A stretch of DNA of 64,000 bases. It comes from Gemmatimonadota bacterium. Lineage in GTDB: Bacteria > Gemmatimonadota > Gemmatimonadetes > Gemmatimonadales > JACORV01. Below the pieces are notes generated by a model. The model saw only the letters and a list, made by a program, of their open reading frames with translations, was not told where the DNA came from and made no database searches. How positions within the stretch are numbered: the first letter of the stretch is position 1; every line of letters starts with the position of its first letter. The stretch is taken from positions 2,798 through 66,797 of the forward strand of contig JBGOSS010000009.1 of NCBI GenBank assembly GCA_041476105.1, written 5' to 3'. A program made the translations under genes and the position numbers. This document shows positions 7,960 to 62,307 of the stretch, in pieces.

Positions 7960-8432
7960 TGCGGTCTCCGAAGCGTGAGGGTCCATGCGGTGTCGAGCCC
8001 GACCACGCGCACCTGGGCCTGTGAGATCGCCACCAGTCGAAGCCCGGCGACGACGTCGCCGACCCTCAGGGAGCGGCTGCCTTCGATCCCCGGCAGGCCC
8101 TCGAGCAGCGCGCGCGAGGTGTCGCCCAGGACGAGCCCTCGAAGCATGAGTTGCGGCCTGGGAGGTGGTGCGAGGGTGGCCGCTCCCTCGCCGAGCGCGG
8201 GTTGGTAGCGGACAGCGGCGGGTCGCCGCTCGAATCGGAACAGATCCCGCGACACGATCCCGAGGGCAAGCGAATCCACCGGGTAGGGCGGGTCACTGAC
8301 TGCGGCTTCCTGCCTTACATCACGGCGTTCCGGAGCAGCGGAATCGATCGGCGACGTGCCGGCGCGCACGCTCGCGCCCACGCCACCCGCGATCAGGAGC
8401 CAAAGGGCCATCTCAAACCACGCCTGCGTCAT
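7956..8432 (-). CDS. GspC-like T2SS component (N-terminal TM, no PDZ)
   Basis: Lies between gspM-like and gspD; TM helix; LRGLVLG...ALLEG...LRVGDVVAGLRLVAI resembles the GspC/PilP HR fold. Confidence 0.55.
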   Translation of the reverse strand: MTQAWFEMALWLLIAGGVGASVRAGTSPIDSAAPERRDVRQEAAVSDPPYPVDSLALGIVSRDLFRFERRPAAVRYQPALGEGAATLAPPPRPQLMLRGLVLGDTSRALLEGLPGIEGSRSLRVGDVVAGLRLVAISQAQVRVVGLDTAWTLTLRRPQ

Positions 8433-10179: not shown

Positions 10180-10973
10180 GGAAGCCGCCGCCGTATGATT
10201 GCGAGGCGTCCCGGTTGTTCGGTCACGAGCAGGTCGAGCGTTTCGGTGAGACCGTGCGGGGGCTTGCCAGCCGTCCCCGTCGCGGTCAGTCGGAGCACCG
10301 ATGGCTGAAAGTCGAGCGTGCCAGAGAGGTGGGCGTACTCGCGCGCCAGGCTCTCCCGACCGGCCCGCGACAGGAGCCCGCCAAGCTCATCGAGCGAGCC
10401 AAGCGGGCGACGGGCTTCACGGCGCGCCGCGAGAACCGACACTGCCTCACGGCTGAGGCCGGACAATGCCAGCAGCACGGCAGGCGGAGCGTTGACGCTG
10501 ACGGCACCGCGGCCCTCGACTGTGAGGAGTGCGACCAGCTCCGCGGGCAGGTGAATCTCTTCCTCAAGCTGGGCGATGCTCTCGATGGCCTGGCCGGCGC
10601 GAAACCGAACGATGCGATGGGCCCACATCGTGGCGGAACCCGGTCCTACACCGGTCAGCGCGAAGGCTCTTTCTATCGTCGCGCTGTCGGACTGATTGAC
10701 GTTGAGAGCCGCGAAGGGATTCTCCAACCGCCACCGGCAGCTGAGACCGTCCCCGAGCGCCTCCGAGCCGTAGTCTTCAGTCGAGCCTTCCGCTCGCCGG
10801 CCGCGTGCGATCTCGGCGCACGCCTCGGCTGCCCATCGTGCGCGCGCGAGACCTATCCGGTTGCGCGAGGCCCGGTCGCCCATTCGGAGTATGCCCATCC
10901 ACGCCGCGAGCGCACCGGTGAGCGCCGCGATTGTCCAGAGGACTGCCATCAAGGCGAAGCCGTGCTTCGTCAT
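10176..10973 (-). CDS. gspK: Minor pseudopilin GspK
   Basis: Start MTKHG|FALMAVLW (no Glu5, typical of GspK); LNVN motif; ATGA overlap with gspJ. Confidence 0.75.
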   Translation of the reverse strand: MTKHGFALMAVLWTIAALTGALAAWMGILRMGDRASRNRIGLARARWAAEACAEIARGRRAEGSTEDYGSEALGDGLSCRWRLENPFAALNVNQSDSATIERAFALTGVGPGSATMWAHRIVRFRAGQAIESIAQLEEEIHLPAELVALLTVEGRGAVSVNAPPAVLLALSGLSREAVSVLAARREARRPLGSLDELGGLLSRAGRESLAREYAHLSGTLDFQPSVLRLTATGTAGKPPHGLTETLDLLVTEQPGRLAIIRRRLP

Positions 10974-11494
10974 TCGCTCCCCACGAGGAGCAGCAGCGTG
11001 TCTGGCTTCCCCAGGCGCCAGAGCCTGAAACGGATGCCGAGTGGCAGCGAAGTGGGCGACAGGTATCCACGAACCCATGACTCGTTGGCGCCGGCGTGCG
11101 GGAGGTAGTCCAGCGCCAGGCTGTCGACACCGACAGCGACAACCAGCGTATCGAACTGCGATACGACCGCCAGCCCGGGGTCGATTGCAACGACGGTGTA
11201 GGACCGCAGGATCGGCCAGCCGCGGGACCGGCTGCTCCACGCGCTGAAGAGGATCCGATCCCGCTCGCCGTGAAAGGGAATGGCCCCAGGGCTCGCGACG
11301 TCGATGGACTCGACCAGCTTTCCCAGCAACCGGAGGCCATTCGCGTCGCGGTCGAGCCGCTCGCGTCGCTCGGTGAGCCGGCGAGCGTCCTCCGTCACGT
11401 CGCCAAACAGCCGGGCCGCTGTGAGCACCAGGACCGAGCCGATGGTGAGTCCTACGACGAGCTCCAGCAGCGTAAAGCCTCGACTATCGCGCAT
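10970..11494 (-). CDS. gspJ: Minor pseudopilin GspJ-like
   Basis: Prepilin motif RG|FTLLELVVGL. Confidence 0.7.
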   Translation of the reverse strand: MRDSRGFTLLELVVGLTIGSVLVLTAARLFGDVTEDARRLTERRERLDRDANGLRLLGKLVESIDVASPGAIPFHGERDRILFSAWSSRSRGWPILRSYTVVAIDPGLAVVSQFDTLVVAVGVDSLALDYLPHAGANESWVRGYLSPTSLPLGIRFRLWRLGKPDTLLLLVGSE

Positions 11495-11849
11495 CGAGGT
11501 CTTCACGATACACGACAGTCACAAGATCGTCGCGCTGTGGGTTGGCGGCGCGCCGGAGCGCGATGCGGAACAGGGTGCGCGTCGGACGCTGGATACCGAC
11601 CAGGTACGGGCCGACGACCGACACACCCAGCCGCAGCTCCAGGTCGGATCGCGACAGCAGCACGTGGGCCGTAAGGAGGCGATCCTCATCCGCCAGCTCG
11701 GCCTCGCGCTGTTGCGCTTCGGCGAGCGATCGGCTCTCGGCATCCACCAGCCTGACGATGCCAAGACCGGCGACGGCGAGGATGGTCGTCGCGGCCATCA
11801 CCTCCAGCAGCACCACGCCGCGCTCAGCGCTTCGCACGGACGGTCCCAC
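11484..11849 (-). CDS. gspI: Minor pseudopilin GspI-like (start may be GTG 11837)
   Basis: RG|VVLLEVMAA, ~120 aa. Confidence 0.65.
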   Translation of the reverse strand: MGPSVRSAERGVVLLEVMAATTILAVAGLGIVRLVDAESRSLAEAQQREAELADEDRLLTAHVLLSRSDLELRLGVSVVGPYLVGIQRPTRTLFRIALRRAANPQRDDLVTVVYREDLDAR

Positions 11850-12123
11850 TCAACGGGTCCACGACGATGGTGACGCCGTCCGCCGTGAGACGCCCGCCGT
11901 TCGATGACCCGTCCGGAAGGAAACGGATGACGACCGAGCCCGAGTGCCACACCGTTGGTTTGCCGAATCGAATCGCCGACTCGCGGGCATCGAGCACCGC
12001 TCGCAGCGCGGCCGCCGAAGGCGAGGCCATGCTCTGACGCCAGGCCAACCCGCTCAGTCCCGCGATGAGGCCGATGATCGCCAGCGAGACGATCAGCTCG
12101 AGGAGGGTCAAGCCCCTACTCAC
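11824..12123 (-). CDS. gspH: Short minor pseudopilin GspH-like
   Basis: RG|LTLLELIVSLAIIG; IRFLPDGSSNGG typical of GspH/FimT. Confidence 0.7.
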   Translation of the reverse strand: MSRGLTLLELIVSLAIIGLIAGLSGLAWRQSMASPSAAALRAVLDARESAIRFGKPTVWHSGSVVIRFLPDGSSNGGRLTADGVTIVVDPLSGTVRAKR

Positions 12124-13304
12124 GGACCCCCCGGTCTCACGCTGTAGAGCGCCTGGAGCAGGCCAGCCGCGACGAGCGCCACCATCGCGGCAAAGCCGAC
12201 GATGAGGGCGGGTTCGAGGAGGCCGATCAGCGTCCCGATGCGTTGCTCGGCGTTCTGTGCCTCGATCGCGGCCGCCCGGCCGAGGAGTTCCGGCAAGCGG
12301 CCCGCGCCGTCGCCGATTGCGGCCATCTGAAGCGCGAATGGGGTGAAGGCGCGCTCCGCTTCCAGGGCCGCACTAAGCGAGGCGCCCTCCGCCACCCGTT
12401 CGGTGGCGCGTCCGAGGCGCTCCGCGACCAGAGTGTCACCGACGCTCTCCTGTGCAATGCGAATCGCGCGCAGCGCAGGAGTACCCGTGCCGAGCAGGGC
12501 CCCCAGGGCGCGGGCCGCCCGCGCCGTCGCGCGGGCGTGCAGGATCGCTCCGATGATCGGGTACGCGTGCAGAAGGCTCGATGCCCGGGTGCGATGGCTC
12601 CTGCTCCACCGAATGACGGTGGCGGCTCCCAGAACGAAGAGGGTCGCGAGCACCAACCAGTGCGACCGGAGAGTCATCGAGGCGCCGAGCAGCAAGCGCG
12701 TCAGCGGTGGGAGGACCGCATCCACGTCCGCCAGGAGCGCCGCGAAGCGTGGCACCACGAACAGCAGGATTCCGAGAAGTGAAGAACCGCCAACAGTCAG
12801 GAGGATCGCCGGGTAGGCCAGGGCCGCGCGCATCCGGGCGGCGCTCTCGGCGCTCCGCTCAAGCTCGTCGGCCGCCGCGGCGAGTCCGGAGGCGACTCCG
12901 AGCCCGTTCTCCGAAGCGTGCACCAGCCCCACGGCTATGGGGGAAAAGAAGAACGGCTCGGCACTCAGTGCGGCCCCGAGCGACGCTCCTTCGCGGACCC
13001 CGGCCTCGACGCGGGCCAGCGACTCGGCCAGCTGTCCCGACACCGCTCGGCGCGTGGCCTTGAGGGCGAAAGCCAGCGGCACCCCGGCCTCCATCAGCGA
13101 GGCGAGGCTGCGGAACGCAGTCGCCTGCGAGCGGGCGTCAGGACGCCGCCGCCAGCGCTCTAGCGGCGCCGGTTCGACCGCGACAGCGAGCAGCCCGCGG
13201 CGCTCCAGAACGGCGAGGGCTTCGGGTCTGGAGGCGACCTCGAGCCGTCCGCGCACGACGCCACCATCCAACGGGCGCACCGCCTCGAAACGGAATCCGC
13301 TCAC
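12120..13304 (-). CDS. gspF: T2SS inner membrane protein F
   Basis: LASLMEAGVPL, ALAYPAILL, LPPLTRLL, LLEPALIV. Confidence 0.9.
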   Translation of the reverse strand: MSGFRFEAVRPLDGGVVRGRLEVASRPEALAVLERRGLLAVAVEPAPLERWRRRPDARSQATAFRSLASLMEAGVPLAFALKATRRAVSGQLAESLARVEAGVREGASLGAALSAEPFFFSPIAVGLVHASENGLGVASGLAAAADELERSAESAARMRAALAYPAILLTVGGSSLLGILLFVVPRFAALLADVDAVLPPLTRLLLGASMTLRSHWLVLATLFVLGAATVIRWSRSHRTRASSLLHAYPIIGAILHARATARAARALGALLGTGTPALRAIRIAQESVGDTLVAERLGRATERVAEGASLSAALEAERAFTPFALQMAAIGDGAGRLPELLGRAAAIEAQNAEQRIGTLIGLLEPALIVGFAAMVALVAAGLLQALYSVRPGGP

Positions 13305-13732
13305 TGGCTGATGTCCGCGTCTTCACCGACGCCGCCCGGACGTCCGTCGCGCCCGTGCGTCAACAGGTCGTATCCCGCGGGGTTGACCACCCCCGGCCTG
13401 GCGAAGACGTAGGCGTGGCCCCACGGATCAAGCGGGATCGGGCGTCGCAGGTAAGGGCCGCGCCAGTTGCGTGGCGCCGGATCGCCGGCGGGTTGGGCCC
13501 GCAGCGCGTCGAGGCCCTGTGCGGTCGACGGGTAGTAGTCGTTGTCGAGCCGGTATTGATCCAGCGCGAGCGCGAACAACTCCATCTGTGCCTTGGCGGC
13601 CGATACCTTCGCGTCCCCGACATTGCGGAAGACCATTGGCGCAACCAGCCCCGCGAGCATCGCGATCACCACGATCACCACCATGATCTCGATGAGTGTG
13701 AACCCGCCGCGGCCGTCAGTCCTGGGTGACAC
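13301..13732 (-). CDS. gspG: Major pseudopilin GspG
   Basis: GG|FTLIEIMVVIVVI; ALDQYRLDN, YPSTAQGL, WRGPYL, DPWG. GTG start at 13732 preceded by GAGGAAG. Confidence 0.95.
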   Translation of the reverse strand: MSPRTDGRGGFTLIEIMVVIVVIAMLAGLVAPMVFRNVGDAKVSAAKAQMELFALALDQYRLDNDYYPSTAQGLDALRAQPAGDPAPRNWRGPYLRRPIPLDPWGHAYVFARPGVVNPAGYDLLTHGRDGRPGGVGEDADISQ

Positions 13733-15203
13733 GGAGCACTTCCTCGATCGTGGTGATGCCGGCCTGCACCTTGCGCCAGCCGTCGTCACGGAGCGTGACC
13801 ATGCCTTCCCGGCGCGCGATTTCGCGCAGACCGGTGAGGTCGTCGCCGCGCGCCGCCGCCAGCTTCACCCCATCGGTGACCCTGAGGAGCTCGAACAAGC
13901 CGGTGCGGCCGCGGTAACCGGTGTTACGGCACTCGGGGCAGCCCCGACCGCGCTCGAGCGAGACCCGGCCGACGGGCCGGTGTGCCAGAAGCGCGACCGC
14001 CTCGGCATCGGGTCGGTAGCGTTCCCGGCAATGGGCGCACACCCGGCGGACCAGGCGTTGCGCGAGCACGCCCTCGAGCGCGGCGACGACCATGTAGGAC
14101 TGGACCCCCAGATTCGCGAGACGCGTCAGTGCCGATACGGCATCGTTGGTATGAAGCGTCGAAAAGACCAGGTGCCCGGTCATGGCCGCCTGGACGGCGA
14201 TCTGCGCGGTCTCGGTGTCCCGCATTTCGCCCACCATGATGACGTCGGGGTCCTGACGGAGCAGGGAGCGCAACGCGGAGCTGAAGGTCATGCCGGCCCG
14301 GGCATTCACTTGCACCTGGGTCACGCCGTCGAAGTGGTATTCGACTGGATCCTCGACCGTGATGATCTTCTCGGCGCTCGCGCGCCGCAGGCCGAGTGCG
14401 GCGTACAGGGTGGTGGTCTTGCCGCTTCCGGTCGGGCCAGTCGCCAGAATGATGCCGTGTGGCCGCTCCGCGAGCCGGCGAACGGCGGCCAGATCCTCCG
14501 GCGCGAGACCCAGCTCATCGAGACCGACGGGCCGGCCGCCACGATCCAGCAACCGTACGGCCACCGATTCGCCGTACAGCGTGGGTACGGTGGACACCCG
14601 CAGGTCGAGCTCCCGCTCCTCGAGCCGAAGGCGGATCCGGCCGTCCTGGGCGATGCGGCGCTCGGCGATGTCCAGGCCGGCGAGGAGCTTGACCCGGGAC
14701 ACGACCGCCGCTTGGAGCCCCTTGGGCGGACAGGGGACCTCGCTGAGGACGCCGTCCAGGCGGAAGCGTACCCGCAGGCCCTCGCGCGCTGACTCGAGAT
14801 GGATGTCGCTGGCTTGGGACTGGTAGGCTTCGCGGATCAGCAGGTTGACGAAGCGGATGACCGGTGGCTGGCTGGCAAGATCCCGTGCGTCCGCGTACGG
14901 AGCATCGCCCTCTGTGGCTGTCTGGACCGCGTCATTGAGGTCGCGAACCAGCTCGACCACCGACTCCGCTGCGCTGAATGCGCGGCGAATGCCGTCCTCG
15001 AGCTCGATTGCGGTGACTGGCAGTAGATCGAGAGGGATCCCGAACGAAATCTCGAGGTCGTCCAGCACCTCGATGGCGGGTTCGCCCGAGACGGCGACCC
15101 TGAGCCGTTCGTTCGCGATCTCGAGCGGGAGGATCCCGTTGTACTGGAGGTAGGCAGCCTCGAAGGCATCCGGCAGAGGCAGTTTCGATTGAATCTCGGC
15201 CAC
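13716..15203 (-). CDS. gspE: T2SS ATPase GspE
   Basis: ASDIHLE, GPTGSGKTTTLY, TVEDPVE, LRQDPDVIMVGEMRD, TGHLVFSTLHTN, CAHC/CPEC zinc site. Confidence 0.95.
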   Translation of the reverse strand: MAEIQSKLPLPDAFEAAYLQYNGILPLEIANERLRVAVSGEPAIEVLDDLEISFGIPLDLLPVTAIELEDGIRRAFSAAESVVELVRDLNDAVQTATEGDAPYADARDLASQPPVIRFVNLLIREAYQSQASDIHLESAREGLRVRFRLDGVLSEVPCPPKGLQAAVVSRVKLLAGLDIAERRIAQDGRIRLRLEERELDLRVSTVPTLYGESVAVRLLDRGGRPVGLDELGLAPEDLAAVRRLAERPHGIILATGPTGSGKTTTLYAALGLRRASAEKIITVEDPVEYHFDGVTQVQVNARAGMTFSSALRSLLRQDPDVIMVGEMRDTETAQIAVQAAMTGHLVFSTLHTNDAVSALTRLANLGVQSYMVVAALEGVLAQRLVRRVCAHCRERYRPDAEAVALLAHRPVGRVSLERGRGCPECRNTGYRGRTGLFELLRVTDGVKLAAARGDDLTGLREIARREGMVTLRDDGWRKVQAGITTIEEVLRVTQD

Positions 15204-27285: not shown

Positions 27286-27966
27286 ATGAAGCGGAATGGT
27301 GTGGCCATTGCCGGCGGGATCGTGCTGGGTTTCGGTGCGATCCTTGCCGGCGTTTCGCTGGCGAGCGGACAGGGGCCGCAGGCGGCCGGCGATTCGGCGC
27401 GGCCCGCCTCCGACACCACGGGCCCCGTCGCCTGGACCTTCCCGCTCCCGCCGGTGAGCGGCGCGGGGTACGCGGACATCGGCGCGTCGCGTCCCAATGG
27501 TGCCTGGCCCACGCTGCCGGCACGGCTCAAGGGTCCGGTGCAGCCGGTCTTCTACCGCCACGACATCCATGCCGGCCAGTACCGGATTCCCTGCCTCTAC
27601 TGTCACAACAACGCCGCCAACAGCTGGACCGCCAACATTCCCACGGTGCAGACGTGCATCGGCTGCCACCTGGTGATCGCCGCCGCCGACACCGCGGGCG
27701 CGCCTAATCCCGAGATCGCCAAGGTGCGCGCCTACGCCGACAGCGGGCAGTCCATTCCATGGGTGAGGGTCTACAAGATCTCCGAGCACGCGCACTTTCC
27801 GCACATGCGCCACGTGAACGCGGGCCTCGCCTGCCAGACCTGTCACGGCAACGTCCAGCAGCTGCCGCGCGTCTTCGCGGTGCAGGACATCAACAACATG
27901 GGCTGGTGCACCAACTGCCACATGCAACGCGGGGTCACCCGGGATTGTACCGCGTGCCATTTCTAA
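27286..27966 (+). CDS. actA: Alternative complex III pentaheme cytochrome c ActA
   Basis: Five CxxCH motifs (CLYCH, CIGCH, CQTCH, CTNCH, CTACH); QPV..H..HAG; FPHMRH; MGWC. Confidence 0.9.
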   Translation: MKRNGVAIAGGIVLGFGAILAGVSLASGQGPQAAGDSARPASDTTGPVAWTFPLPPVSGAGYADIGASRPNGAWPTLPARLKGPVQPVFYRHDIHAGQYRIPCLYCHNNAANSWTANIPTVQTCIGCHLVIAAADTAGAPNPEIAKVRAYADSGQSIPWVRVYKISEHAHFPHMRHVNAGLACQTCHGNVQQLPRVFAVQDINNMGWCTNCHMQRGVTRDCTACHF

Positions 27967-27971
27967 CTACT

Positions 27972-28066
27972 GAGGTGACAAAGGTGACAAAGGTGACAGA
28001 GGTAACAAGGGGGATGCGAATTCTCCCTGGCGTCCCCTTTGTCACTTTTGTTACCTCTGTTACCTC
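27972..28066. repeat. Inverted arrays of 9-bp tandem repeats forming a long hairpin between actA and actB
   Basis: 4x RAGGTRACA (27972-28007) + AGGGGGATGC ... GCGTCCCCTT + 3x TGTYACYTY (28040-28066). Confidence 0.85.
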
Positions 28067-28075
28067 GGGTCTTTC

Positions 28076-31026
<2,951 letters not shown>

Positions 31027-31030
<4 letters not shown>

Positions 31031-32391
31031 TGGCGGCCATGGCCCAGCCGCTCCGCTCGCACGCCCCCGAGCCCACCTACGCCGAGGTCAACCGGGACAT
31101 TATCCGCACGCTCGATCCGCCCGGCGCGGGCTGGCTGGCGGGGATGGCGGTCATCCTCCTTGGCTTGTCGATCGGCGGCTACAGCTTCGCCAAGCAGCTG
31201 AAGTACGGCCTCGGTGTGACCGGCTATACGCCGCCGGTTTTCTGGGGCACCTACATCACCACCTTCGTCTTCTGGGTCGGCATCGCCCACTCGGGGACGC
31301 TCATCAGCGCGATCCTCTTCCTGTTCCGGTCGGGGTGGCGCGCCGCCGTCTACCGGGCGGCGGAGGCGATGACGGTCTTCGCCGTGATGACGGCCGGGCT
31401 CTTCCCGGTGCTCCACCTGGGCCGCGCCTGGTTCGCCTACTGGGTCGCGCCGTACCCGAACATCCGGGGCCTCTGGTCGAACTTCAAATCGCCCCTGGTG
31501 TGGGACATCTTCGCGATCTCGACCTACCTGACGGTCTCCGCGACGTTCCTGATCATGGGGCTGATCCCCGACGTCGCGGCGATCCGCGACCAGGCGGTCG
31601 GCTGGCGGCGCCGGGTCTACAGCGTCATCGCCCTGGGCTGGCGCAACTCGAACAACGAGTGGCGTCACTTCATGCGGATGTACCTCTTCCTGGCGGGGCT
31701 CTCGACGCCGCTGGTGCTCTCGGTCCACTCGGTCGTGTCGTGGGATTTCGCGATGGCCATCGTGCCGGGGTGGCACGCGACCATCTTCGCGCCGTACTTC
31801 GTGGCCGGCGCGATCTTCTCGGGCTGCGGCATGGTGATCACCATCCTGGTGCCGCTGCGCCGGGGCTTCCACCTCGAGCGCTACCTCGAGATCCGCCACT
31901 TCGAGAACCTGGCCAAGCTCTGCCTGCTGACCTCGACCATCGTCGGCTACTCCTACTTCACCGAGTACTTCATCGCCTGGTACAGCGGCAACCCGATCGA
32001 GCGCGAGAGCTTCTACTACCGCGCCTTCGGGCAGTACTGGTGGGCCACCTGGACGATGATCACCTGCAACGTGTTCATCCCGCTGCTGCTGTGGAACAAG
32101 CAGGTGCGGACCAACCTCACCTGGCTCTTCGTCATCTCGATCTTCATCAACATCGGGATGTGGTTCGAGCGGTTCGTCATCATCTCGACCAGCCTGTCGC
32201 ACGAGTTCGAGCCGTGGCAGTGGGCCTACTACCTGCCCAACCACATCGAGGTCGGCATCATCATCGGCAGCTTCAGCTGGTTCAGCATGTGGTTCATGCT
32301 GTTCATCAAGTTCTTCCCCGCGCTCGCCATCTCCGAGGTGAAGGAGGCGCTGCCGCCGCCCCAGCGCGCGCCGGCGGGAGGGGGGCACTGA
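31027..32391 (+). CDS. actC: ACIII ActC (NrfD family quinol-binding subunit)
   Basis: FVFWVGIAHSGTLISAIL, RAAEAMT, HLGR.W, NFKSPLVWD, SVHSVVSWDFA, GMWFERF. Confidence 0.93.
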
Positions 32392-32915
32392 TGGCCACGC
32401 CCCCCGTGATGGATCCGCGCACCGGCGTGGTCGGGGTCTTCGGCGATCTCGACGGCACGGTGCTCGCGCTGCGCGAGCTGAAGGCCAAGGGCTACGACAG
32501 CATCACCGTCTATTCCCCGGTGCCGCGCCACGAAATCGACGAGGTGCTGGACCAGCCGGTGAGCCCGGTCCGGCTGTTCACGCTGATCGGCGGGCTCACC
32601 GGCTGCGCTTTGGGCTTCGCCTACGCCATCTCGACCTCGCTCGACTGGGAGCTGATCACCGGCGGCAAGCCGATCGTGTCGCTGCCCCCGTTCATCATCA
32701 TCGGCTTCGAGTGCACCATCCTGATCGGCGCCCTGTCGACGGTCGCGGGGATGTTCCTGAACGCGCGGCTGCCGAAGTTCCGCAAGGCCGCGGGCTACGA
32801 TCCCCGCTTCAGCGCCGACAAGTTCGGCGTGCTGGTCTTCGGCGGGCCGGCCCAGGTGTCCGCCGCCGAGCAGATCCTGCGGGCCGCCGGCGCCGAAGAG
32901 GTCAACAATGTCTGA
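32391..32915 (+). CDS. actD: ACIII ActD (DUF3341)
   Basis: YSPVP.H, GGKP, FECTIL, DPRFSADKF; two TMs. Confidence 0.88.
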   Translation: MATPPVMDPRTGVVGVFGDLDGTVLALRELKAKGYDSITVYSPVPRHEIDEVLDQPVSPVRLFTLIGGLTGCALGFAYAISTSLDWELITGGKPIVSLPPFIIIGFECTILIGALSTVAGMFLNARLPKFRKAAGYDPRFSADKFGVLVFGGPAQVSAAEQILRAAGAEEVNNV

Positions 32916-33489
32916 CCTCCGCACCGCGAGCCGCGCACCACGCGCCGTGTGGCTCGTGGCGCTCGCGCTGGGCTCGACGTCCTGCACCACTCTCGACCGG
33001 GCGGTCGGCGCCGTGCCGTGGTTCACCACCATGCGCGATCAGCCGGCGGTGCGCCCCTTCGAGGGGCCGGCGGACTCCACGGGGCGCGCGCCGCGCTTCC
33101 TGCCGCCGGAGGGCAGTGTGCCGGTCACCGGCCGCGAGGATTCGCTGAGCATCTACGAGCCGGCGGGGCTGCGGATCACCGACGCGCTCCACAACCCGGT
33201 ACGCCCGACCGAGGCGTCGCTGGCGCGGGGCGGGAAGATTTTCGGCACCTACTGCGGTGTCTGCCACGGCCCGCAGGGCCGGGGCGACGGCCCGGTGGCC
33301 GGACGACTCGGGTACGTGCCCGACCTCACCCTGGACGTCACCCGGCAGCGCAGCGACGGCTACATCTACGCCGTGCTCCGCCACGGCCGCGGGGTCATGC
33401 CGCGCTACGGCGACAAGATCCGTGACGCCTCCGACCGGTGGAACGTGGTGAACTACCTGCGCAGCCTCCAGGGAGCGCCGGCGCGATGA
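32908..33489 (+). CDS. actE: ACIII ActE monoheme cytochrome c lipoprotein
   Basis: Lipobox-like STSC, M.DQP, CGVCH, MP.Y, RW.VV.YLR.LQ. Confidence 0.88.
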   Translation: MSDLRTASRAPRAVWLVALALGSTSCTTLDRAVGAVPWFTTMRDQPAVRPFEGPADSTGRAPRFLPPEGSVPVTGREDSLSIYEPAGLRITDALHNPVRPTEASLARGGKIFGTYCGVCHGPQGRGDGPVAGRLGYVPDLTLDVTRQRSDGYIYAVLRHGRGVMPRYGDKIRDASDRWNVVNYLRSLQGAPAR

Positions 33490-34793
33490 GCCACGACCAG
33501 GCGATCGACCGCGTCGCGCTGAGCGAAAGCGTCCGCACCCGCCTCCAGCGGCCGCTGCCGGCCTGGATGCGCCCGCTCTTCCTGGCCTGCGCCGGGGCAG
33601 GGTGGCTGACCTTCCTGGTCCTCGCGTTTGGCGTGGATCCCGACCGGGCGTGGCGCATCTACCACGTCAACTGGCTGTTCTGGACCGGCGTCGCGCAGGC
33701 CGGCGTACTCTTCGCCGCGGTGGTCACGGTCGCCAAGGGCCGCTGGGCGACGCCGCTGCGCCGGATGAGCGAGGCGTCGGCGCCCTTTCTCCCGGTCGCG
33801 TTCGTGCTGTTCCTGCTGTCGTGGTTCGGGCGCGCGCATATCTACCCCTGGATCGCACACCCGATCACCGACGTGCCGGTCAAGCAGTTCTGGCTCCGGG
33901 ACTGGTTCCTTTACGCGCGCGTCTCGTTCGCCATGCTGCTGCTGTTCGGCATGAGCGTGTACTTCGTCTACCACGGCGTGCGCCAGGACGTGGCCGACGG
34001 CAAGGACAAGCTGCCGGCCCGCTTCCGGCCCCTCTACGACCGGATCACCGCGGGCTGGCATCCCGAGCAGGGCTTCGCGCTCTCGGGCGAGACCCGCGCG
34101 ACCTCGGCGCCGGTCCTCATCATCCTGTACGCCGTCGTGATGTCGCTGATCGCGTTCGACTGCATCATGTCGCTCGCGCCCTACTGGGTGTCGAACCTCC
34201 TGGGCGGGTTCTTCTTCATGGGCGCGTGGCTCAGCGGGCTGATGGCGCTCGCGCTGCTCGCGATCCTGTGGCGGAAGCACTACGGGCTGGAAGACGTGAT
34301 CACCCCCAGGCACCTGCACGACCTCGGCAAGATGTGCTTCGGCTTCACCGTGTTCTGGGCCTACACCTTCTTCTCCCAGTTCATCGTCATCTGGTACGGC
34401 AACATGCCGGAAGAGACGCACTTCCTCTTCCTGCGCATGACGCGGCCGGAGTGGCGCGGGATCTCGATCGCCATGGTGGTGCTCTGTTTCCTGGTGCCCT
34501 TCTGGGGGCTCATCGGGATCAAACCCAAGAAGACGCCGGCCCTGCTCGGGACCTTCGCGGTCGTCTCCCTCACCGGCCTGTGGGTGGACCGCTTCGTGCT
34601 GACGGTTCCCTCGATCGTGCAGGCGCCGGGACGGCTGCCCCTGGGCTGGCAGGAGATCCTCATCACCGCCGGCTTCTTCGGGCTGTGGGGGCTGTGCTAT
34701 CTCTGGTTCGCCGACCGGTTCCCGCTGGTGAGCCCGGTGCTGATCCGGCATCATGGGGAGCGGCGGGCGCACGCGCATCATTCGGACGCCTGA
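33486..34793 (+). CDS. actF: ACIII ActF (NrfD-like)
   Basis: Polytopic; MSLAP.W.S, HDLGK..FGFTVFWAY.FFSQF..IWYGNMPEET. Confidence 0.9.
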   Translation: MSHDQAIDRVALSESVRTRLQRPLPAWMRPLFLACAGAGWLTFLVLAFGVDPDRAWRIYHVNWLFWTGVAQAGVLFAAVVTVAKGRWATPLRRMSEASAPFLPVAFVLFLLSWFGRAHIYPWIAHPITDVPVKQFWLRDWFLYARVSFAMLLLFGMSVYFVYHGVRQDVADGKDKLPARFRPLYDRITAGWHPEQGFALSGETRATSAPVLIILYAVVMSLIAFDCIMSLAPYWVSNLLGGFFFMGAWLSGLMALALLAILWRKHYGLEDVITPRHLHDLGKMCFGFTVFWAYTFFSQFIVIWYGNMPEETHFLFLRMTRPEWRGISIAMVVLCFLVPFWGLIGIKPKKTPALLGTFAVVSLTGLWVDRFVLTVPSIVQAPGRLPLGWQEILITAGFFGLWGLCYLWFADRFPLVSPVLIRHHGERRAHAHHSDA

Positions 34794-55887: not shown

Positions 55888-58218
55888 ATGAGAGCAGCCC
55901 ACTCGGCGGGCGTGACCGGAGTCCTCGTGGTCGCGCTCGCCGCTTCGCTTGAGGCGCAGCAGGCCCCCGCACGGGCGGATGCGGCGCCCTTCGATCTGTC
56001 CATCGACAACATCATGCGCGGCCCCGAGCTCTACGGCACCGCCCCCTCGCTGGTCCGGTTCTCCGACGACTCGCGCTGGGTCTGGTTCCGGTGGCGCAAG
56101 CCCGGCGTCGACACCACCGACCGGTTCTACCGCGTGGCCGTGCCGGGCGGAGAGGCCGAAGTCGCCAGCGACACGGCGGCGGACTCGTTGTACCCGCAGC
56201 CGGGCGCCTGGTCGCGTGACCGCCGCCTCAAGGTGTTCGCGCAGCGCGGCGATGTCTGGCTTTGGGACGCGGCCCGGGGTGCGCGGCGGCGGCTCACCCG
56301 GACGCCGGCCGCCGAGAGCTCCCCTTCGCTCGCGCCCGACGGGCGCACCGTGTATTTCGTCCGCGACGACAACCTCTTCGCGCTCGCCCTGGGTGACGCG
56401 ATGCTGCGCCAGCTCACCGACGTGCGCCGCGGGCTCGCACCGCGCGGGCTCGCGGCGCGCGACACCACCGGCCAGCGCGGCTTCCTGCGCGGCGAGCAGC
56501 GCCGCCTCTTCGAGTTTCTCCGGCGCCCCCCGCAGAGCGACAACGCCAACCCGTTCGCGCCGCGCCCCGGCGACTCCACGCTGCCCAAACCGCTCTACCT
56601 GGAGGAACGGCAGTCGATCCGGTCGTGGGACGTCTCGCCCGACGGCCGCTTTGCGCTCCTCACCGTCTTCGAGCGGGCCGCCAACGCGCAGGTACAGACG
56701 CTGCCGATCTGGGTGACGGCGACCGGCTACATCGAGACCCAGCCCAACCGCACCAAGGTCGGCGACGAGCAGGGCACCTCGAAGGCCGCGCTCCTGGAGC
56801 TCGAGACCGGCGCGCTGACCTGGCTGGACGTCGGACTCGGGCGCCGGCTGGTGGACGTGACCACGGTCGACTGGTCGTCGAGCGGCCGGTTCGCGCTGTT
56901 GCGCGGTACCTCGAGGGACGTCGAGGACCGCTGGCTCTGGACCGTCGAGCTGCCGGCCGTCACGGTGCGCATGGTGGACGCGCTCCACGACAGCGCTTGG
57001 GTGGCCCAGCTCTCGCAGAGCGCCGGCTGGCTGCCCAACGCCGACACCGTCTGGTTCACGTCGGAGCGCACCGGCTGGGCGCACCTGTACACGGTGCCCG
57101 CGACGGGAGCCGAGCAGCCGCACGCGGTGACGCCCGCGGACCGGCCCTACGAGGTGCGCCAGGTCGAGCCGTCGGCCGACGGCCGCCGCTTCACCTATCA
57201 CAGCAACGAGACGCACTTCGGCGAGCAGCACGCCTTCTCGATCGCCACCGACGGGTCGGGGGGCGCCCAGCTCACCCACTCCGACGGGCGCGAGGACGCC
57301 GTGGTCAGCCCCGACGAGCGTTGGCTGGCGGTGCTCCACTCGACGGCGAATCACCCGCCCGAGCTGTACATCCAGCCGAACCGCGCCGGCGCGGCGTGGC
57401 GGAAGGTGACCGAGTCCACGACCGAGGAGTTCCGCCGCTACCCGTGGCGGATCCCGGAGCTGGTCATGGTGCCGGCGCGGGACGGTGCCCAGGTTCCCGC
57501 GCGCCTCTACCGGCCGGCGCGGCCCAACGGCGCCGCGGTGATCTTCGTGCACGGCGCCGGCTACCTCCAGAATGCCCACAAGTGGTGGTCGAGCTACTCG
57601 CGCGAGTACCTGTTCAACCACCTCCTCGCCGAACGCGGCTACGCGGTGCTCGACATGGACTACCGCGCGAGCGCCGGCCTCGGCCGCAACTGGCGGGCGG
57701 CCATCTACCGGTACATGGGCGGCGTCGATCTCACCGATCACGTGGATGGCGCGCGCTGGCTGGTGCGCAATCTGGGCGTCGACAGCGCGCGCATCGGGAT
57801 CTACGGCGGCAGCTACGGCGGCTTCATCACGCTGATGGCGATGTTCACCACGCCCGGGGTGTTCCGTGCCGGCGCGGCGCTGCGTCCCGTGACCGACTGG
57901 GCGCACTACAACCACGGCTACACCTCCGCCATCCTGAACGAGCCGCAGGACGACAGCGCGGCCTACCGCCGCAGCTCGCCGATCTACTTCGCCGACGGGC
58001 TGCGCGGCAACCTGCTCATCGCCCACGGGATGGTCGACGACAACGTCAACTTCCAGGACGCCGTGATGCTGGTCCAGCGCCTGATCGAGCTGCGCAAGGA
58101 GAACTGGGAGCTCGCCGTCTACCCGGTGGAGCCCCACGGTTTCCGGATGGCCACGAGCTGGGCCGACGAGTACAAGCGGATCTTCCGGCTCTTCGAGACC
58201 AACCTGGCCCGGCCGTGA
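55888..58218 (+). CDS. S9-family (DPP IV-like) serine peptidase
   Basis: Beta-propeller SPDG repeats; GGSYGG nucleophile, DDNV Asp, HGF His. Confidence 0.92.
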   Translation: MRAAHSAGVTGVLVVALAASLEAQQAPARADAAPFDLSIDNIMRGPELYGTAPSLVRFSDDSRWVWFRWRKPGVDTTDRFYRVAVPGGEAEVASDTAADSLYPQPGAWSRDRRLKVFAQRGDVWLWDAARGARRRLTRTPAAESSPSLAPDGRTVYFVRDDNLFALALGDAMLRQLTDVRRGLAPRGLAARDTTGQRGFLRGEQRRLFEFLRRPPQSDNANPFAPRPGDSTLPKPLYLEERQSIRSWDVSPDGRFALLTVFERAANAQVQTLPIWVTATGYIETQPNRTKVGDEQGTSKAALLELETGALTWLDVGLGRRLVDVTTVDWSSSGRFALLRGTSRDVEDRWLWTVELPAVTVRMVDALHDSAWVAQLSQSAGWLPNADTVWFTSERTGWAHLYTVPATGAEQPHAVTPADRPYEVRQVEPSADGRRFTYHSNETHFGEQHAFSIATDGSGGAQLTHSDGREDAVVSPDERWLAVLHSTANHPPELYIQPNRAGAAWRKVTESTTEEFRRYPWRIPELVMVPARDGAQVPARLYRPARPNGAAVIFVHGAGYLQNAHKWWSSYSREYLFNHLLAERGYAVLDMDYRASAGLGRNWRAAIYRYMGGVDLTDHVDGARWLVRNLGVDSARIGIYGGSYGGFITLMAMFTTPGVFRAGAALRPVTDWAHYNHGYTSAILNEPQDDSAAYRRSSPIYFADGLRGNLLIAHGMVDDNVNFQDAVMLVQRLIELRKENWELAVYPVEPHGFRMATSWADEYKRIFRLFETNLARP

Positions 58219-58976
58219 ACGCACGGCCGCTCGGTGCGGCCTGTATCGGCGTCGGGGGCGCGGCGCTGCTGCGGCTGGGCGGCTCGTCGCTGCCGGTCTC
58301 GGTGCTGGGCGGCCTGGGCGCGACCACCTTCGCGGCCTGGCGCACCGTGCCCGGCGCCTTGGTGGCATATGGCCTGCTCCTCTTCGGCGCACTCGCGGCC
58401 TGGCCGGCCGCAGGGTCGCCCGGCGCCACCTCGCGCGCGCTACCGGTCCTGGCGGCGCTCGAGGCGTTCGGCCTGGCCACGATCGCGGCCACGATCTTCG
58501 CCAGCGCGTCCCGGCGCGTCAGCCGCCGGATGCTGGGCGCCTGGCTGGCGTCGTCGGGCTGCATCGTCCTGGGGCTGGTGCTCGACGCGGCCGTGCCGAC
58601 CGGTGGCCTGGGGAGCGCGCTGATCGCGGGCGGACTGGCGTACAAGCTCGGCGTCGTGCCGGCCTTCGCCTGGGCGCCGCTCCTGCTGCGCCATGCCTCG
58701 ACCCGGATCACGGCCCTCGGCGTGGCGGCCTTCCCGCTCACGCTGGCGGCGCTATGGACCGTCGTGCCGACGCTCTCCCAGCCGGACGACGCCATGGCCG
58801 CCCTGCTGGTGCTGAGCGTGGTCACCGTGCCCTGGGCGCTGTGGCACGTCGCGCATCAATGGCGGACCGACGCCCGCTGCGCCCGGTCGTACGGCGCGGT
58901 CCTCGCCGCGGCGTGCCTGCTGGTCGCGCTGGTCATGCAGGCGCGCCGCCTGCCGATCCTGTCGCTCTTGCGATAA
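58215..58976 (+). CDS. Membrane protein resembling an internal fragment of NuoN/Mrp antiporter-like subunits
   Basis: GTGA overlap; ALEAFGLA (TM5-like Glu) and GLAYKLGVVPAFAWAP (cf. GLxFKLxxxPFHxWxP). Confidence 0.55.
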   Translation: MNARPLGAACIGVGGAALLRLGGSSLPVSVLGGLGATTFAAWRTVPGALVAYGLLLFGALAAWPAAGSPGATSRALPVLAALEAFGLATIAATIFASASRRVSRRMLGAWLASSGCIVLGLVLDAAVPTGGLGSALIAGGLAYKLGVVPAFAWAPLLLRHASTRITALGVAAFPLTLAALWTVVPTLSQPDDAMAALLVLSVVTVPWALWHVAHQWRTDARCARSYGAVLAAACLLVALVMQARRLPILSLLR

Positions 58977-59572: not shown

Positions 59573-59607
59573 GAGGATCGAGGATGGAGGATCGTCCTCT
59601 ATCCTCT
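59573..59607. repeat. Heptamer tandem/inverted repeat hairpin upstream of the tRNA
   Basis: GAGGATC GAGGATG GAGGATC followed by GTCCTCT ATCCTCT. Confidence 0.6.
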
Positions 59608-59623: not shown

Positions 59624-59696
59624 GGGGCGGTAGCTCAGTTGGGAGAGCACCTGCTTTGCAAGCAGGGGGTCACCGGTTCGATCCCGGTCCGCTCCA
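59624..59696 (+). tRNA. tRNA-Ala(UGC); CCA not encoded
   Basis: Acceptor GGGGCGG/CCGCTCC with G3:U70; D arm TAGCTCAGTTGGGAGAGC; anticodon stem CCTGC-TTTGCAA-GCAGG; T loop GGTTCGATCC. Confidence 0.97.
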
Positions 59697-59702
59697 TCCT
59701 CC

Positions 59703-60035
59703 ATGGACGCACTCGTCGTCGAGCAATACGGGTACCTGCTGGCCGTGCTCGTCGGCGCTCTCGCCGCGGGCTCGGTCCTCGTGCTGATCCTCAACGGGCG
59801 CGCCGCGGCAACCAGGGCCGGCGCGGACGAGGCGGCGGTCGCCCGGCCGCGGAATCTTCCGAACGTGATGATGCTGCTCGTCGCGCTTGCGGTCGGCGCC
59901 GGCATCCTGCTGCTGCTGCCCGCGGCGATGGTCCTGCGGTACTTCCCGCATTGGCGGGTGGGCGCGCTCCTGATGGGCGCGGCTGTGATCCTCGGCGCAC
60001 CGCTGCTCTACGCCTGGCGCGCGCGGCCCCGCTGA
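59703..60035 (+). CDS. Diverged NuoA-like 3-TM protein
   Basis: 110 aa, three TMs; LLLPAAMV ~ FLYPWAV and LLYAWR ~ LxYxWxKG; lacks YECG and FDVE. Confidence 0.6.
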   Translation: MDALVVEQYGYLLAVLVGALAAGSVLVLILNGRAAATRAGADEAAVARPRNLPNVMMLLVALAVGAGILLLLPAAMVLRYFPHWRVGALLMGAAVILGAPLLYAWRARPR

Positions 60036-60036
60036 C

Positions 60037-60741
60037 ATGAGCGTCCGCGCACCGCGCGCCGTGACCATCGGCCAGGCCGGGCTGACCGCGGGCGCTCTCG
60101 TCGTGGCGACGCTCGTTCCGCTGGCGCCCGACCAGCCGTTCCCCTCGCTGCCCCTTGGCCTGCTCATCGCCGTCGCGGGGTTCGGCTTCCTCGGCCTCGC
60201 CCTCGCGGCATACGCCGCGGCCGCGGGCGAGCCCGCCAGGGCCGCCGAGCGACTCGATGCGGCCGCGCTCTGGTCCGGCTGCGCCCTCGCCGGACTTGGC
60301 GCCCTCGCCGCCGTGGCCGCGACCGCCGAATCGCTGGAGCCCCTGAACATCGTCCTCGCGCAGCGCAACACCTCGCTCTACGTCGTGAGGCAGCCGGTCG
60401 CGGCGTGGATCTACCTCGTGGCACTTGCGCTCGCCGGCCAGGAGTCGGCGCTTCTCGCGGTGCTCGGCCCGCCGTCCCGGGCGCGGTCCCTCGCGCTGGT
60501 GTCGGTCACCATTTCGCTCGCGGCACTGGGCGCGACGGCCTTCCTGGGCGGATTCGACGGCCCGCATCTGCCCGGGAGCGCCTGGGTCGCGATCAAGACC
60601 GGTGTCGTCGCCCTGGCCGTGATCGCGATCCGCTTCGCGCTGCGCGGCCTGACGGCGGGCGGGCGCCTCGCCATCGCGTGGGCGGCCGCGGGGGTCGGAG
60701 TGCTGAACCTCATCATGACGCTGGCCCTGGCGATGCGGTGA
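60037..60741 (+). CDS. Diverged, shortened NuoH-like membrane protein
   Basis: NIVLAQ...VVRQPVAAWIY and FLGGFDGP.LPG.AW..IKT match NuoH landmarks; N-terminal part and the acidic PFDLxEAExEL loop are absent. Confidence 0.65.
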   Translation: MSVRAPRAVTIGQAGLTAGALVVATLVPLAPDQPFPSLPLGLLIAVAGFGFLGLALAAYAAAAGEPARAAERLDAAALWSGCALAGLGALAAVAATAESLEPLNIVLAQRNTSLYVVRQPVAAWIYLVALALAGQESALLAVLGPPSRARSLALVSVTISLAALGATAFLGGFDGPHLPGSAWVAIKTGVVALAVIAIRFALRGLTAGGRLAIAWAAAGVGVLNLIMTLALAMR

Positions 60742-61235
60742 ACTGGACCGGCGTGGTGTTCGGCGTCTCGATCGCCCTGGCGCTCATCGGCGGAGTGGGC
60801 GCGGCCTTCGCGCAGCGGCCGCGCGCGTCGGTGTATTGCCTCGCCATCGCGATGCTCGGCATCGCGGGCATCTGCCTCGCCCTCGGCAACGATCTGCTGG
60901 CGATTCTCGTCGCCACGGTGCTCGGGGCGGGCGTGCCGTCGGCTTTTCTGGTCGCGCTCCTGCTGGCGCCGGCGCCGGAACCCGACGTGCACGCGGAGCG
61001 GGGGCGCGTCCTGGTAACTCTGGCCGGCATCACCGCCGGCTTCGCGGCACTCGGGTGGCTCCTCAGCCGCACGCCGTGGCTGCCGGCCGGCGGGACGCGG
61101 CAGAACGCCATCGAGTGGTTGGGGTCGCGCTTCCTGACCGACCACCTGCTCACCCTCGATCTGCTGGCGGCGCTCCTCGCGACGGCCGCGCTGGGCGCCG
61201 TGGCCCTGCTGCGGGGCCGGAGCCGGCGCGCGTGA
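60738..61235 (+). CDS. Diverged NuoJ-like membrane protein
   Basis: 165 aa; C-terminal IEWLGSRFLTDHLLTLDLLAALLATAALGAVAL ~ NuoJ IGxxLFTxYLLPFExxSxLLLxAxIGAIxL. Confidence 0.7.
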   Translation: MNWTGVVFGVSIALALIGGVGAAFAQRPRASVYCLAIAMLGIAGICLALGNDLLAILVATVLGAGVPSAFLVALLLAPAPEPDVHAERGRVLVTLAGITAGFAALGWLLSRTPWLPAGGTRQNAIEWLGSRFLTDHLLTLDLLAALLATAALGAVALLRGRSRRA

Positions 61236-61525
61236 CGCTCGACATCGTGGCCGTCGTCGCGGCGCTCCTGCTGCTCCTGGGCCTGGGCGCCACGCTCCTG
61301 CGACGCTCGCTGATCGGGTTCCTGGTCGGGATCGAGCTGGGCACCGGGGCGCTGGTCCTGCTGACCACGGTGCTGTTCGACCTGTCGGGTACCGTGACCA
61401 GCACCGGCCAGGTGATCGCCGCCGCGGCGATCGTGTTCGGTGTCGCCGCCGGGGTGCTGGTGGTCGCCCTCCATCTCGCGGCCGTCAGGGCCGGCCGCCG
61501 GACCGCGGACCTCGAGCCGTGGTGA
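61232..61525 (+). CDS. Diverged NuoK-like membrane protein
   Basis: 97 aa; LGL..TLLRRSLI..LVGIEL and GQVIA match NuoK; the TM3 AAE glutamate is missing. Confidence 0.72.
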   Translation: MTLDIVAVVAALLLLLGLGATLLRRSLIGFLVGIELGTGALVLLTTVLFDLSGTVTSTGQVIAAAAIVFGVAAGVLVVALHLAAVRAGRRTADLEPW

Positions 61526-62202
61526 TGCCGCGCGCCGCGTCCCTGGCCGTCGAGGCCTGTCTCGGCGTCGCGGCGCTGGTGGCGTTCGTCGCCCTCCTCG
61601 CCGGGAGCGCGCGAGCCGGCCGCGCCGCGCGGCGCGCCGCGTGCTGGGGCGCGGCGGCGGCGCTGGTGGCCGCGCTCGCCACCATCACCTCGGACGCCGT
61701 CTGGTTCTTCGAGGCGCTGCGCGTGGACGCCTCCACGCAGGCGATGAAGGCGGTCGTCGCGGCCGGCTTGCTGCTCTCGATGCTCCGGCGCGAGCGCGCC
61801 GGCTTCGCGCAGTCCAGCGCCGTGGGGCCGTTCTTCGCATTGGTGTGCGCGGCCGCGCTGGCGCTGGCGGCCAGCGCCGGGGACCTGCTGGTCCTGTGGA
61901 TCGCGCTCGAGATCGGCAGCGCCGCGCTGCTGATCGCCGTCGCGGCGGGCGGAAGCTGGAGCACGCGCGAAGCCCTGGTGCGGCGGCTGGTCTCATCCTG
62001 GCTGCCCACGTCGCTGGTGCTGTTGCTGGGCACGGTCCTCCTCGCCGCGATCGCCGGCGCCACGCGCTTGGCCGATCTCGAGACCCTGCTCCCGGACCTG
62101 CGTCGCGAGCCCGTCGTGGTGACGGGCATGGTGCTGATCGTCGGCGCCATCTTCGCGCGCGCCGTCCGGTTCGTCGCCATCTTGGCTGGCAGCCCGGGTT
62201 GA
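61522..62202 (+). CDS. Truncated NuoN-like protein (N-terminal half only)
   Basis: LRVDA.T..MK, SAGDLLVLWIALEIGS, STREALVR, LLLGTVLL...AGAT.L follow NuoN; ends where GLxFK (TM7) should begin. Confidence 0.65.
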   Translation: MMPRAASLAVEACLGVAALVAFVALLAGSARAGRAARRAACWGAAAALVAALATITSDAVWFFEALRVDASTQAMKAVVAAGLLLSMLRRERAGFAQSSAVGPFFALVCAAALALAASAGDLLVLWIALEIGSAALLIAVAAGGSWSTREALVRRLVSSWLPTSLVLLLGTVLLAAIAGATRLADLETLLPDLRREPVVVTGMVLIVGAIFARAVRFVAILAGSPG

Positions 62203-62220
62203 TCAGCAGGTGCGCGCTCG

Positions 62221-62264
62221 CCTTCAGCCTTTAGCCTTCAGCCATCAGCCATCAGCCATCAGCC
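62221..62264 (+). repeat. Six tandem heptamers CC(T/A)TYAG
   Basis: CCTTCAG CCTTTAG CCTTCAG CCATCAG CCATCAG CCATCAG CC. Confidence 0.9.
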
Positions 62265-62307
62265 AACTCATGGTTAGCTTCCCTCACCATTTCATCGGAG
62301 AGTCCTG

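Follow-up and report, generated by a model that had tools for sequence, protein, structure and literature searches.

Five trimmed paralogs of complex I membrane subunits form a lineage-restricted, probably noncatalytic gene cluster in Gemmatimonadota

INTRODUCTION

Why would a bacterium keep the membrane core of a respiratory enzyme after shedding the redox parts? The question is raised by five genes in a 64,000-nucleotide stretch of a Gemmatimonadota genome (GCA_041476105.1, contig JBGOSS010000009.1, positions 2,798 to 66,797; here, the window). The genes resemble nuoA, nuoH, nuoJ, nuoK, and nuoN of complex I, an enzyme that is thought to be built from modules. We call the five-gene cluster the mini-cluster, or mini, and mark its paralogs with primes (A', H', J', K', and N'). 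"Parent" denotes the intact 11-subunit operon nuoABCDHIJKLMN, G000 is the genome of the window, other G and L numbers are family genomes and loci, and g1 to g5 are genera. A first-pass annotation, made from the window alone, had described a miniature complex I module and suggested that selection for a new function retained it. That interpretation stands in part; it had recognized neither the 11-subunit parent nor the graded shortening of N', and it did not report the link to tRNA-Ala or a sixth, N'-derived gene. Here, we show that the mini-cluster descends once from the 11-subunit operon of its own family, and we argue that it is a selected, noncatalytic, dead-paralog pseudo-module of the complex I proximal arm, probably a scaffold.

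RESULTS

The mini-cluster consists of five open, same-strand, hydrophobic open reading frames (ORFs), intact and tightly coupled in nuo order, and each lies where the first-pass annotation had placed it (Table 1). A' and H' are separated by 1 nucleotide (nt), H' and J' as well as J' and K' overlap by 4 nt, K' and N' also overlap, and the codon usage of all five is like that of the neighboring genes. No nuoB-G, nuoI, nuoL, or nuoM gene lies inside the cluster, again as had been read. In profile searches, J' scored above the Pfam Oxidored_q3 cutoff (E = 2.5e-13), H', K', and N' matched the NuoH, NuoK, and NuoN models below cutoff (E = 4e-7, 1.9e-5, and 3e-11, respectively), and A' alone had no match. 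A' was recognized only by profile-profile comparison, in which seven A' rows aligned to nine parent NuoA rows with an hhalign probability of 98.5 (E = 2.8e-15). A search for further A' homologs is uninformative for the range of A', as its alignment included the parent and mostly parent-type NuoA was returned. AlphaFold models of H' and N', folded from alignments that included full-length parent rows, had predicted local distance difference test (pLDDT) values of 83.7 and 84.1 and superposed on Escherichia coli NuoH and NuoN with TM-scores of 0.79 and ~0.70, respectively. Within G000, the nearest relatives of the five genes are the subunits of the 11-subunit operon. We conclude that the five genes are NuoA, NuoH, NuoJ, NuoK, and NuoN paralogs. 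Annotators should be warned that some sources call H' proteins plain NuoH.

The first-pass annotation had proposed looking for a separate complete nuo operon, and two operons were found. G000 (84% complete) carries a canonical nuoB-N operon on contig C71, which starts inside nuoB, and the 11-subunit nuoABCDHIJKLMN operon on contig C21, where a separate Hyf/Ehr-like operon also lies. Thus, the five cluster genes are extra copies, and the possibility that they are the only nuoAHJKN of the genome was rejected. Canonical nuoA was not found in G000, given where C71 starts, and was found in 4/5 relatives tested. An assembly artifact was likewise rejected: the cluster is present in seven genomes, and the early N' stop is spanned gap-free by a contig from another run. 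Separately, we note that the relocated intact 11-subunit operon (C21 of G000, loci L030 and L031; C129 of G011, locus L193) is divergent from genes for pyruvate:ferredoxin oxidoreductase and a dihydroorotate-dehydrogenase-like protein, a candidate electron donor route.

What the five proteins have lost was read residue by residue. The labels Glu36 (NuoK), Tyr59 (NuoJ), and Asp79 (NuoA) are those we take these positions to carry, and NuoH numbers come from an E. coli alignment. NuoN numbers and NuoK Glu72 follow the accessible text of PMC13073174 and were placed by motif. Among 31 H' sequences (23 once pairs more than 70% identical are removed), transmembrane helix (TM) 1 was absent from 31/31, loop Glu216, Glu218, and Glu220 were deleted from 31/31, and neither Glu157 nor the TM5 Glu was retained in any; Glu241 was present in 16/31 and Lys274 in 29/31. 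The parts of NuoH that form the quinone entry or contact the peripheral arm (TM1, the amphipathic helix, and the acidic TM5-6 loop) are gone from all 31 H', which extends to the relatives covered the loss of the N terminus and acidic loop first read in the window. A' has lost the parent's YESG motif, TM2 Asp, and TM3 Glu. The first-pass annotation was right that both NuoA motifs had disappeared and wrong about their letters, as the parent motifs read YESG and AVDV, not YECG and FDVE. The J' TM3 Tyr and K' Glu72, also reported lost, were found in 0/8 each. The two glutamates reported to remain, Glu36 of K' and Glu133 in TM5 of N', are present in G000 but vary in relatives, with Glu36 in 6/8 (Gln in 2/8) and Glu133 in 5/7 (Asp or Cys in 2/7). 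Elsewhere in N', Lys217 is found in 0/7 (Arg in 6), Lys247 in 0/7, and Lys395 in 1/7; the TM8 Lys is Trp even in long forms, and the TM12 position of the long forms is Lys395 in G010 and Arg in G007 and G011. The N' proteins of the seven genomes are 474, 470, 467, 326, 323, 227, and 224 amino acids (aa) long, and N' ends at TM7a or TM10 in 4/7, G000 included. The continuous central axis of complex I (H Glu157, A Asp79, J Tyr59, K Glu36/Glu72, and N Glu133/Lys217/Lys247/Lys395) is therefore broken in the minis. As no quinone site, head-piece contact, or continuous charged axis is left, redox-driven pumping is excluded by sequence.

Could the remaining charges serve a passive path? The minis have fixed residues of their own, as J' P67 and P78, K' G29 and H81, and H' W79, R150, and R210 each occur in 8/8 minis and only there. 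J' P67 sits in NuoJ TM3, the gate helix of the E-channel, and rotation of that helix makes or breaks the E-channel water wire according to the accessible text of PMC10212512. Perhaps, the E-channel region became a stand-alone passive conduit for ions or small solutes, in which the TM3 proline locks the gate helix in one state and a new path is lined by four residues, Glu36 and His81 of K', Glu133 of N', and Lys274 of H'. The invariant proline and His81 are consistent with a conduit, as are the retention of Lys274 (also in 9/9 A'-H' fusions, below), the independence of the cluster from the parent operon, and a sixth gene that keeps its TM5 Glu and stands alone in four genomes without the cluster. 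The chain of charged residues, however, is broken at every step, both glutamates are replaced in some relatives, and the second half-channel of N' is lost in 4/7. Moreover, according to the accessible text of PMC13073174, E. coli NuoN is severely impaired by K247A and by K395A, but E133A behaves like the wild type. Since E133A is wild-type-like and the essential Lys247 is gone from 7/7 N', long forms included, the two glutamates carry little weight, and the ion channel or transporter that the first-pass annotation had built on them is not supported. We consider a passive conduit unlikely. As a separate observation, H' C82, J' C46, and K' H81 are mini-specific conserved Cys and His residues.

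Where the mini-cluster occurs indicates where it came from. By H' profile, it was found in 7 of 27 family genomes (g1, 4/7 including G000; g2, 2/4; g5, 1/1; g3, 0/13; and g4, 0/2), with the five genes present in order in all seven and nuoB, nuoC, nuoD, and nuoI, the Q-module genes, absent from 7/7 clusters and present only in a separate or upstream parent operon. It is thus retained in three genera. The short form of H' was found in none of 374 order genomes of two other families (profile search, E = 1e-42; a sample with seven candidates scored per genome; 401 order genomes in all). Pattern scans of genome and metagenome contigs returned mostly full NuoH, with minis only at L034, L078, L079, and L122. 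The same tRNA-Ala is followed by an intact 11-subunit nuoA in 16 family genomes, and in seven of these tRNA-Ala loci that were covered through nuoN, the intact operon has no mini behind it. The full operon and the mini stand in tandem in G010 and in the metagenome locus L122; in G000, G006, and G011 the mini is at tRNA-Ala and the intact operon lies elsewhere. In G006, ~1.5 kilobases of DNA low in G+C content lie between tRNA-Ala and nuoA' (L026:1520-2997), with more upstream, and the tRNA looks like an integration site.

A tree was built from the H, J, K, and N columns of eight minis, ten parents, and one canonical set, with A and L122 left out. The minis form one clade on a long branch of the raw tree (ultrafast bootstrap support of 100), in which the minis with long N' branch at the base and the shortest N' are derived forms; the nearest branch is the 11-subunit parent, which has the same gene order and occupies the same chromosomal slot. 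We conclude that the minis have a single origin from the family's 11-subunit operon. We infer a history of one tandem duplication at tRNA-Ala and three clean block deletions (BCD, I, and LM), after which the intact copy was lost or relocated in individual lineages. The nuoA' ATG lies 6 nt past the tRNA-Ala CCA (window 59696-59703) without a Shine-Dalgarno sequence, and the distance is 5 to 9 nt, again without one, in 4/5 genomes (G007, G011, and G002 among them) and in L078, and 21 nt in G004; intact parent nuoA lies 33 to 55 nt behind the CCA in 16 parents. The short distance suggests either leaderless translation after tRNA processing or weak expression.

Two kinds of evidence bear on whether the subunits assemble. 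First, nine metagenome proteins fuse A' to H'. Four are full fusions of 353 to 356 aa (P0153 and P0287-P0289), from three sources, three of them 52 to 55% identical to the fourth, and five are partial fusions of 219 to 266 aa (P0152, P0154, P0157, P0158, and P0164) in which H' TM2-3 is replaced by A' TM2-3. An A'-only profile matched 8/9 fusions and 0/31 unfused H'. A fusion-alignment search found no fusion gene in 401 phylum genomes, and the fusions therefore stand without genomic context or taxon. A single 162-aa protein, P0156, runs from H'-like to J'-like sequence and is possibly an assembly artifact. Second, a four-chain complex model of A', J', K', and H', with H' as the partner and N' not included, scored 0.67, versus 0.01 for the best of three controls. 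Between runs, 88% or more of the contacts recurred, and the pLDDT of the partner did not fall below 78. This mark was attained by 116/157 solved pairs and 2/215 mismatched pairs. In the predicted packing, which follows that of complex I, H' TM3, TM4, and TM8 lie against A' TM2-3 and J' TM3, and the predicted interface includes A' TM2-3, the part retained in the partial fusions. Thus, H' docks on A' and J' in the multimer prediction that the first-pass annotation had proposed, but complex I structures are already known and parent rows were part of the alignments for J and K, so the pass may reflect likeness or memory and not binding. Together, the fusions and the model point to a physical module.

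A sixth gene, nuoN'', overlaps the stop of an S9 peptidase gene upstream and is separated from the cluster by dinB. N'' matches NuoN weakly, aligns over approximately TM5-TM10, and groups with the N' clade, with support of 100 when the labels are interpreted according to the re-rooting. The TM5 Glu is retained in 6/6, and N'' also has a broken TM7 motif, K/R-xxxxP-xxxW-xP, that short N' has lost. Strong N'' homologs were found in 5/26 other family genomes, four of which lack the cluster and carry N'' alone at other loci (G001, G019, G024, and G025). In G000 and L078, N'' precedes the tRNA, and in G006 it sits between the same lipoprotein and dinB genes; two of these three bearers have the shortest N', and the N' of L078 is cut by the contig end. 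ESM Atlas leads for N'' were antiporter-like, all below 0.9. N'' might have been the missing C-terminal half of N', and that was rejected, as the two overlap over TM5-TM7a and N'' is found without the cluster in four genomes. Because N'' overlaps N' in extent, we take it to be a daughter copy of N'.

Is the cluster maintained? The minis of G010 and L122 differ by 43 synonymous and 35 nonsynonymous changes (Nei-Gojobori), for a ratio of nonsynonymous to synonymous rates (dN/dS) of 0.35 (p = 5e-6 versus neutral), and the adjacent full operon of the same pair gave 0.26, a difference from the mini with p = 0.58. Gene by gene, dN/dS was 0.09 for A', 0.68 for H', 0.85 for J', 0.22 for K', and 0.27 for N'. 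An exhaustive profile search returned 17 sequence clusters at 50% identity (E < 1e-30), the whole ones 224 to 236 aa long. Between G000 and G006 the mini proteins are 49 to 65% identical, versus 48% for a lipoprotein and 72 to 80% for enzymes, which is the pace of ordinary accessory neighbors. All five frames are open in 6/7 genomes, the exception being A' of G007. Faster decay without the parent was not seen in four genomes, where mini/GH terminal branch ratios were 3.7 and 2.6 without the parent versus 3.3 and 4.9 with it. The pattern of a pseudogene remnant, broken frames and dN/dS near 1, does not describe the cluster. We conclude that the cluster is lineage-restricted and selected, at least in part.

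DISCUSSION

How the mini-cluster relates to known systems can be answered subunit by subunit. Its direct parent, the 11-subunit complex I (Moparthi and Hagerhall 2011; PMC3144371, accessible text), shares its gene order, its slot, and its nearest branch, but the cluster has neither Q-module, NuoL, nor NuoM, its H' has no TM1 or acidic loop, and its coupling residues are gone; where complex I has three antiporter-like subunits (L, M, and N), the cluster has one N', truncated in 4/7. The proximal module of complex I, NuoH-A-J-K-N, which holds the E-channel (PMC10212512, accessible text), has the same five subunits, the same folds, and the predicted H-A-J packing. Unlike that module, the cluster is encoded alone, the E-channel glutamates, NuoJ TM3 Tyr, NuoK Glu72, and NuoN TM8 Lys are absent, N is often cut at TM7, and A and H are sometimes fused. 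Ehr/Hyf hydrogenase-related complexes are also reduced sets of complex I-like membrane subunits, but their NuoH homolog is full, their antiporter subunits are intact, and they have a NuoD/NuoB-like head; their hydrogenase-like large and small subunits are not in the cluster. Mitochondrial ND2-module assembly intermediates and assembly factors are precedents for membrane-arm subassemblies and noncatalytic helpers. The mitochondrial helpers are unrelated proteins, however, whereas the candidates here are dead core-subunit paralogs.

The Mrp Na+/H+ antiporter is likewise a redox-free membrane complex of complex I-homologous subunits. Mrp has two intact antiporter-like subunits (MrpA and MrpD) together with MrpE, MrpF, and MrpG, and it has no NuoH or NuoA homolog. 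The accessible text of PMC3144371 lists the MrpA-G subunits. The cluster, by comparison, has one degenerate N' and an H', and the TM7, TM8, and TM12 charges of two intact subunits are not there. Another possibility is that NuoM and NuoL of the 11-subunit enzyme also associate with the mini as an alternative proximal module, which would give a redox-free antiporter of the Mrp type. In basal minis, N' is indeed full length and carries the TM12 motif, and the mini directly follows nuoLMN in G010 and L122. N' nevertheless ends early in 4/7 genomes, G000 included, which removes the NuoM face, the TM8 Lys is Trp even where N' is long, parent L and M were not found in G004 and G007, and no MrpE/F/G-like gene was recognized among the genes called around the cluster, no genome-wide Mrp search having been made. 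We regard a shared antiporter as quite improbable. By their defining features, complex I, Mrp, and Ehr do not include the cluster, which is a new version of the complex I proximal module built of dead paralogs. In agreement with the first-pass annotation, which knew of no such system, full-text searches of the literature found no description of such a cluster; supplements, of which those of PMC12361115 and PMC9426454 could list such genes, and most subscription papers were outside their scope. In their accessible parts, PMC4453560 reports two clade C isozymes in Gemmatimonas aurantiaca, and PMC12361115 sorts complex I variants by subunit presence, leaves "incomplete" sets unseparated, and has no Gemmatimonad in its main text.

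What might a dead proximal module do? The account we favor, though at a little less than an even chance, is a self-assembling, noncatalytic scaffold that holds or buffers membrane-arm subunits of a putative partner and is neither a pump nor a channel. The five trimmed paralogs behind tRNA-Ala would pack into one membrane module, as predicted, and the module would act as a placeholder or sink for membrane-arm subunits. Selection would have kept a physically contiguous five-subunit block without the redox and proton parts. By the geometry of complex I, two surfaces would be open: the face of N' toward NuoM, present only when N' is long, and the groove of J', K', and N' into which the C-terminal helix of NuoL fits. 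Short N' ends before the NuoM face and thus cannot offer it.

Several points weigh against a selected scaffold, and its weak step is the partner. None of the 13 g3 genomes and neither of the two g4 genomes, all of which have the parent, has the cluster. No parent operon was found in G002 (76% complete) or G004 (90% complete), though the mini persists there, and G007 (98% complete) keeps only a 95-codon nuoN stub of it, behind unrelated DNA; absence in fragmented genomes is weak evidence, as the G005 parent was missed by one search and found by another. Thus, the 11-subunit enzyme does not need the mini, nor does the mini depend on that enzyme, and in genomes without the parent any partner would be the canonical enzyme or an unrelated one. 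In G003, the locus lacks both the mini and the full operon. Moreover, dN/dS comes from one pair only, with full-length N', and the values for H' and J' are not clearly below 1, on few changes. The minis evolve ~4 times faster than the parents in the tree, the A' of G007 is frameshifted, and the A' and H' of G002 each have no first helix. Finally, the predicted interface residues of H' are no more conserved than the rest (p = 0.74). At the G007 locus (L028:6691-9113), the S9 peptidase gene is also in pieces beside the frameshifted nuoA', by decay or by assembly indels.

Slow decay or constructive neutral retention would accommodate much of this. The duplicate would be shrinking gradually, and its frames would stay open mainly since they belong to a transcript running from tRNA-Ala to ahpC, in which a broken membrane protein or a polar effect would carry a cost. 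The graded N' series, with its shortest forms derived, is expected of such decay, as are the damage in G007 and G002, the complete loss in G003, the start close behind the CCA without a Shine-Dalgarno sequence, and an interface that is not specially conserved. Decay does not fit the pooled dN/dS, the 17 sequence clusters of near-constant length, or an identity between genomes like that of accessory neighbors. Nor does it fit the clean loss of exactly the noncontiguous subunits, the mini-specific invariant residues, or the in-frame A'-H' fusions. We judge decay or neutral retention rather unlikely. Selection over decay, as first proposed, is thus supported by deletions common to relatives and by dN/dS in one close pair, and it is weakened by the G007 frameshift and the G003 loss.

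Under the scaffold account, a module is seen leaving complex I and being kept by selection, and its intermediates persist in living genomes: full and mini operons in tandem, N' in long and short form, proteins that join A' to H', and an N fragment set free. Perhaps, a respiratory machine has been recycled, such that a stripped NuoH-A-J-K-N core with its own fixed residues, fused subunits, and a free half-antiporter gene acts independently of complex I as the first bacterial dead-paralog assembly or storage scaffold or as a new passive conduit; we hold this to be possible rather than probable. If true, the smallest membrane-arm core able to assemble by itself would be defined by the natural N' series, which spans 474 to 224 aa. 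The cluster offers a natural redox-free version of NuoH-A-J-K-N, where the coupling mechanism is debated. Once expressed, the module could be used to ask what role the core has in the absence of quinone chemistry, which of its interfaces are enough for assembly, and whether dead paralogs act as bacterial assembly helpers.

OTHER FEATURES OF THE LOCUS

The positions of the genes and of the elements around them are given in Table 1. A search for a sigma-70-type promoter at the locus found none.

Table 1. Features of the mini-cluster and its surroundings in the window
Feature	Coordinates	Strand	Description
nuoA'	59703..60035	+	110 aa, 3 TM; TM1-2 loop motif and TM2/TM3 acids lost
nuoH'	60037..60741	+	234 aa, TM2-TM8 (7 TM); TM1, amphipathic helix, and acidic TM5-6 loop deleted; Glu157 and TM5 Glu lost; Lys274 kept
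nuoJ'	60738..61235	+	165 aa, 5 TM; TM3 Tyr lost; new invariant Pro67 in TM3
nuoK'	61232..61525	+	97 aa, 3 TM; Glu36 present in G000, Glu72 lost; new invariant His81
nuoN'	61519..62202	+	227 aa from GTG, 225 aa from ATG 61525; ~6-7 TM, TM1-TM7a only; TM5 Glu present, TM7 Lys to Arg, TM8-TM14 absent
tRNA-Ala(TGC)	59624..59696	+	directly upstream of nuoA'
nuoN'' (sixth gene)	58215..58976	+	253 aa; antiporter-like fragment, ~TM5-TM10; nested with N' clade
Terminator-like hairpin	59580..59606	+	between dinB and tRNA; consensus match only

Three further observations concern the window. A short 7-nt tandem repeat lies between nuoN' and ahpC (62219-62270), and very-high-depth contigs map to the bin in four runs. 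At the start of the window (13-15203), genes for a Toprim primase, an integrase, a sigma-54 activator, a secretin, and type II secretion proteins, partly of lower G+C content, look like an integrated element. Finally, positions 27286-34793 hold an Alternative complex III-like cluster with a molybdopterin/Fe-S subunit and NrfD.

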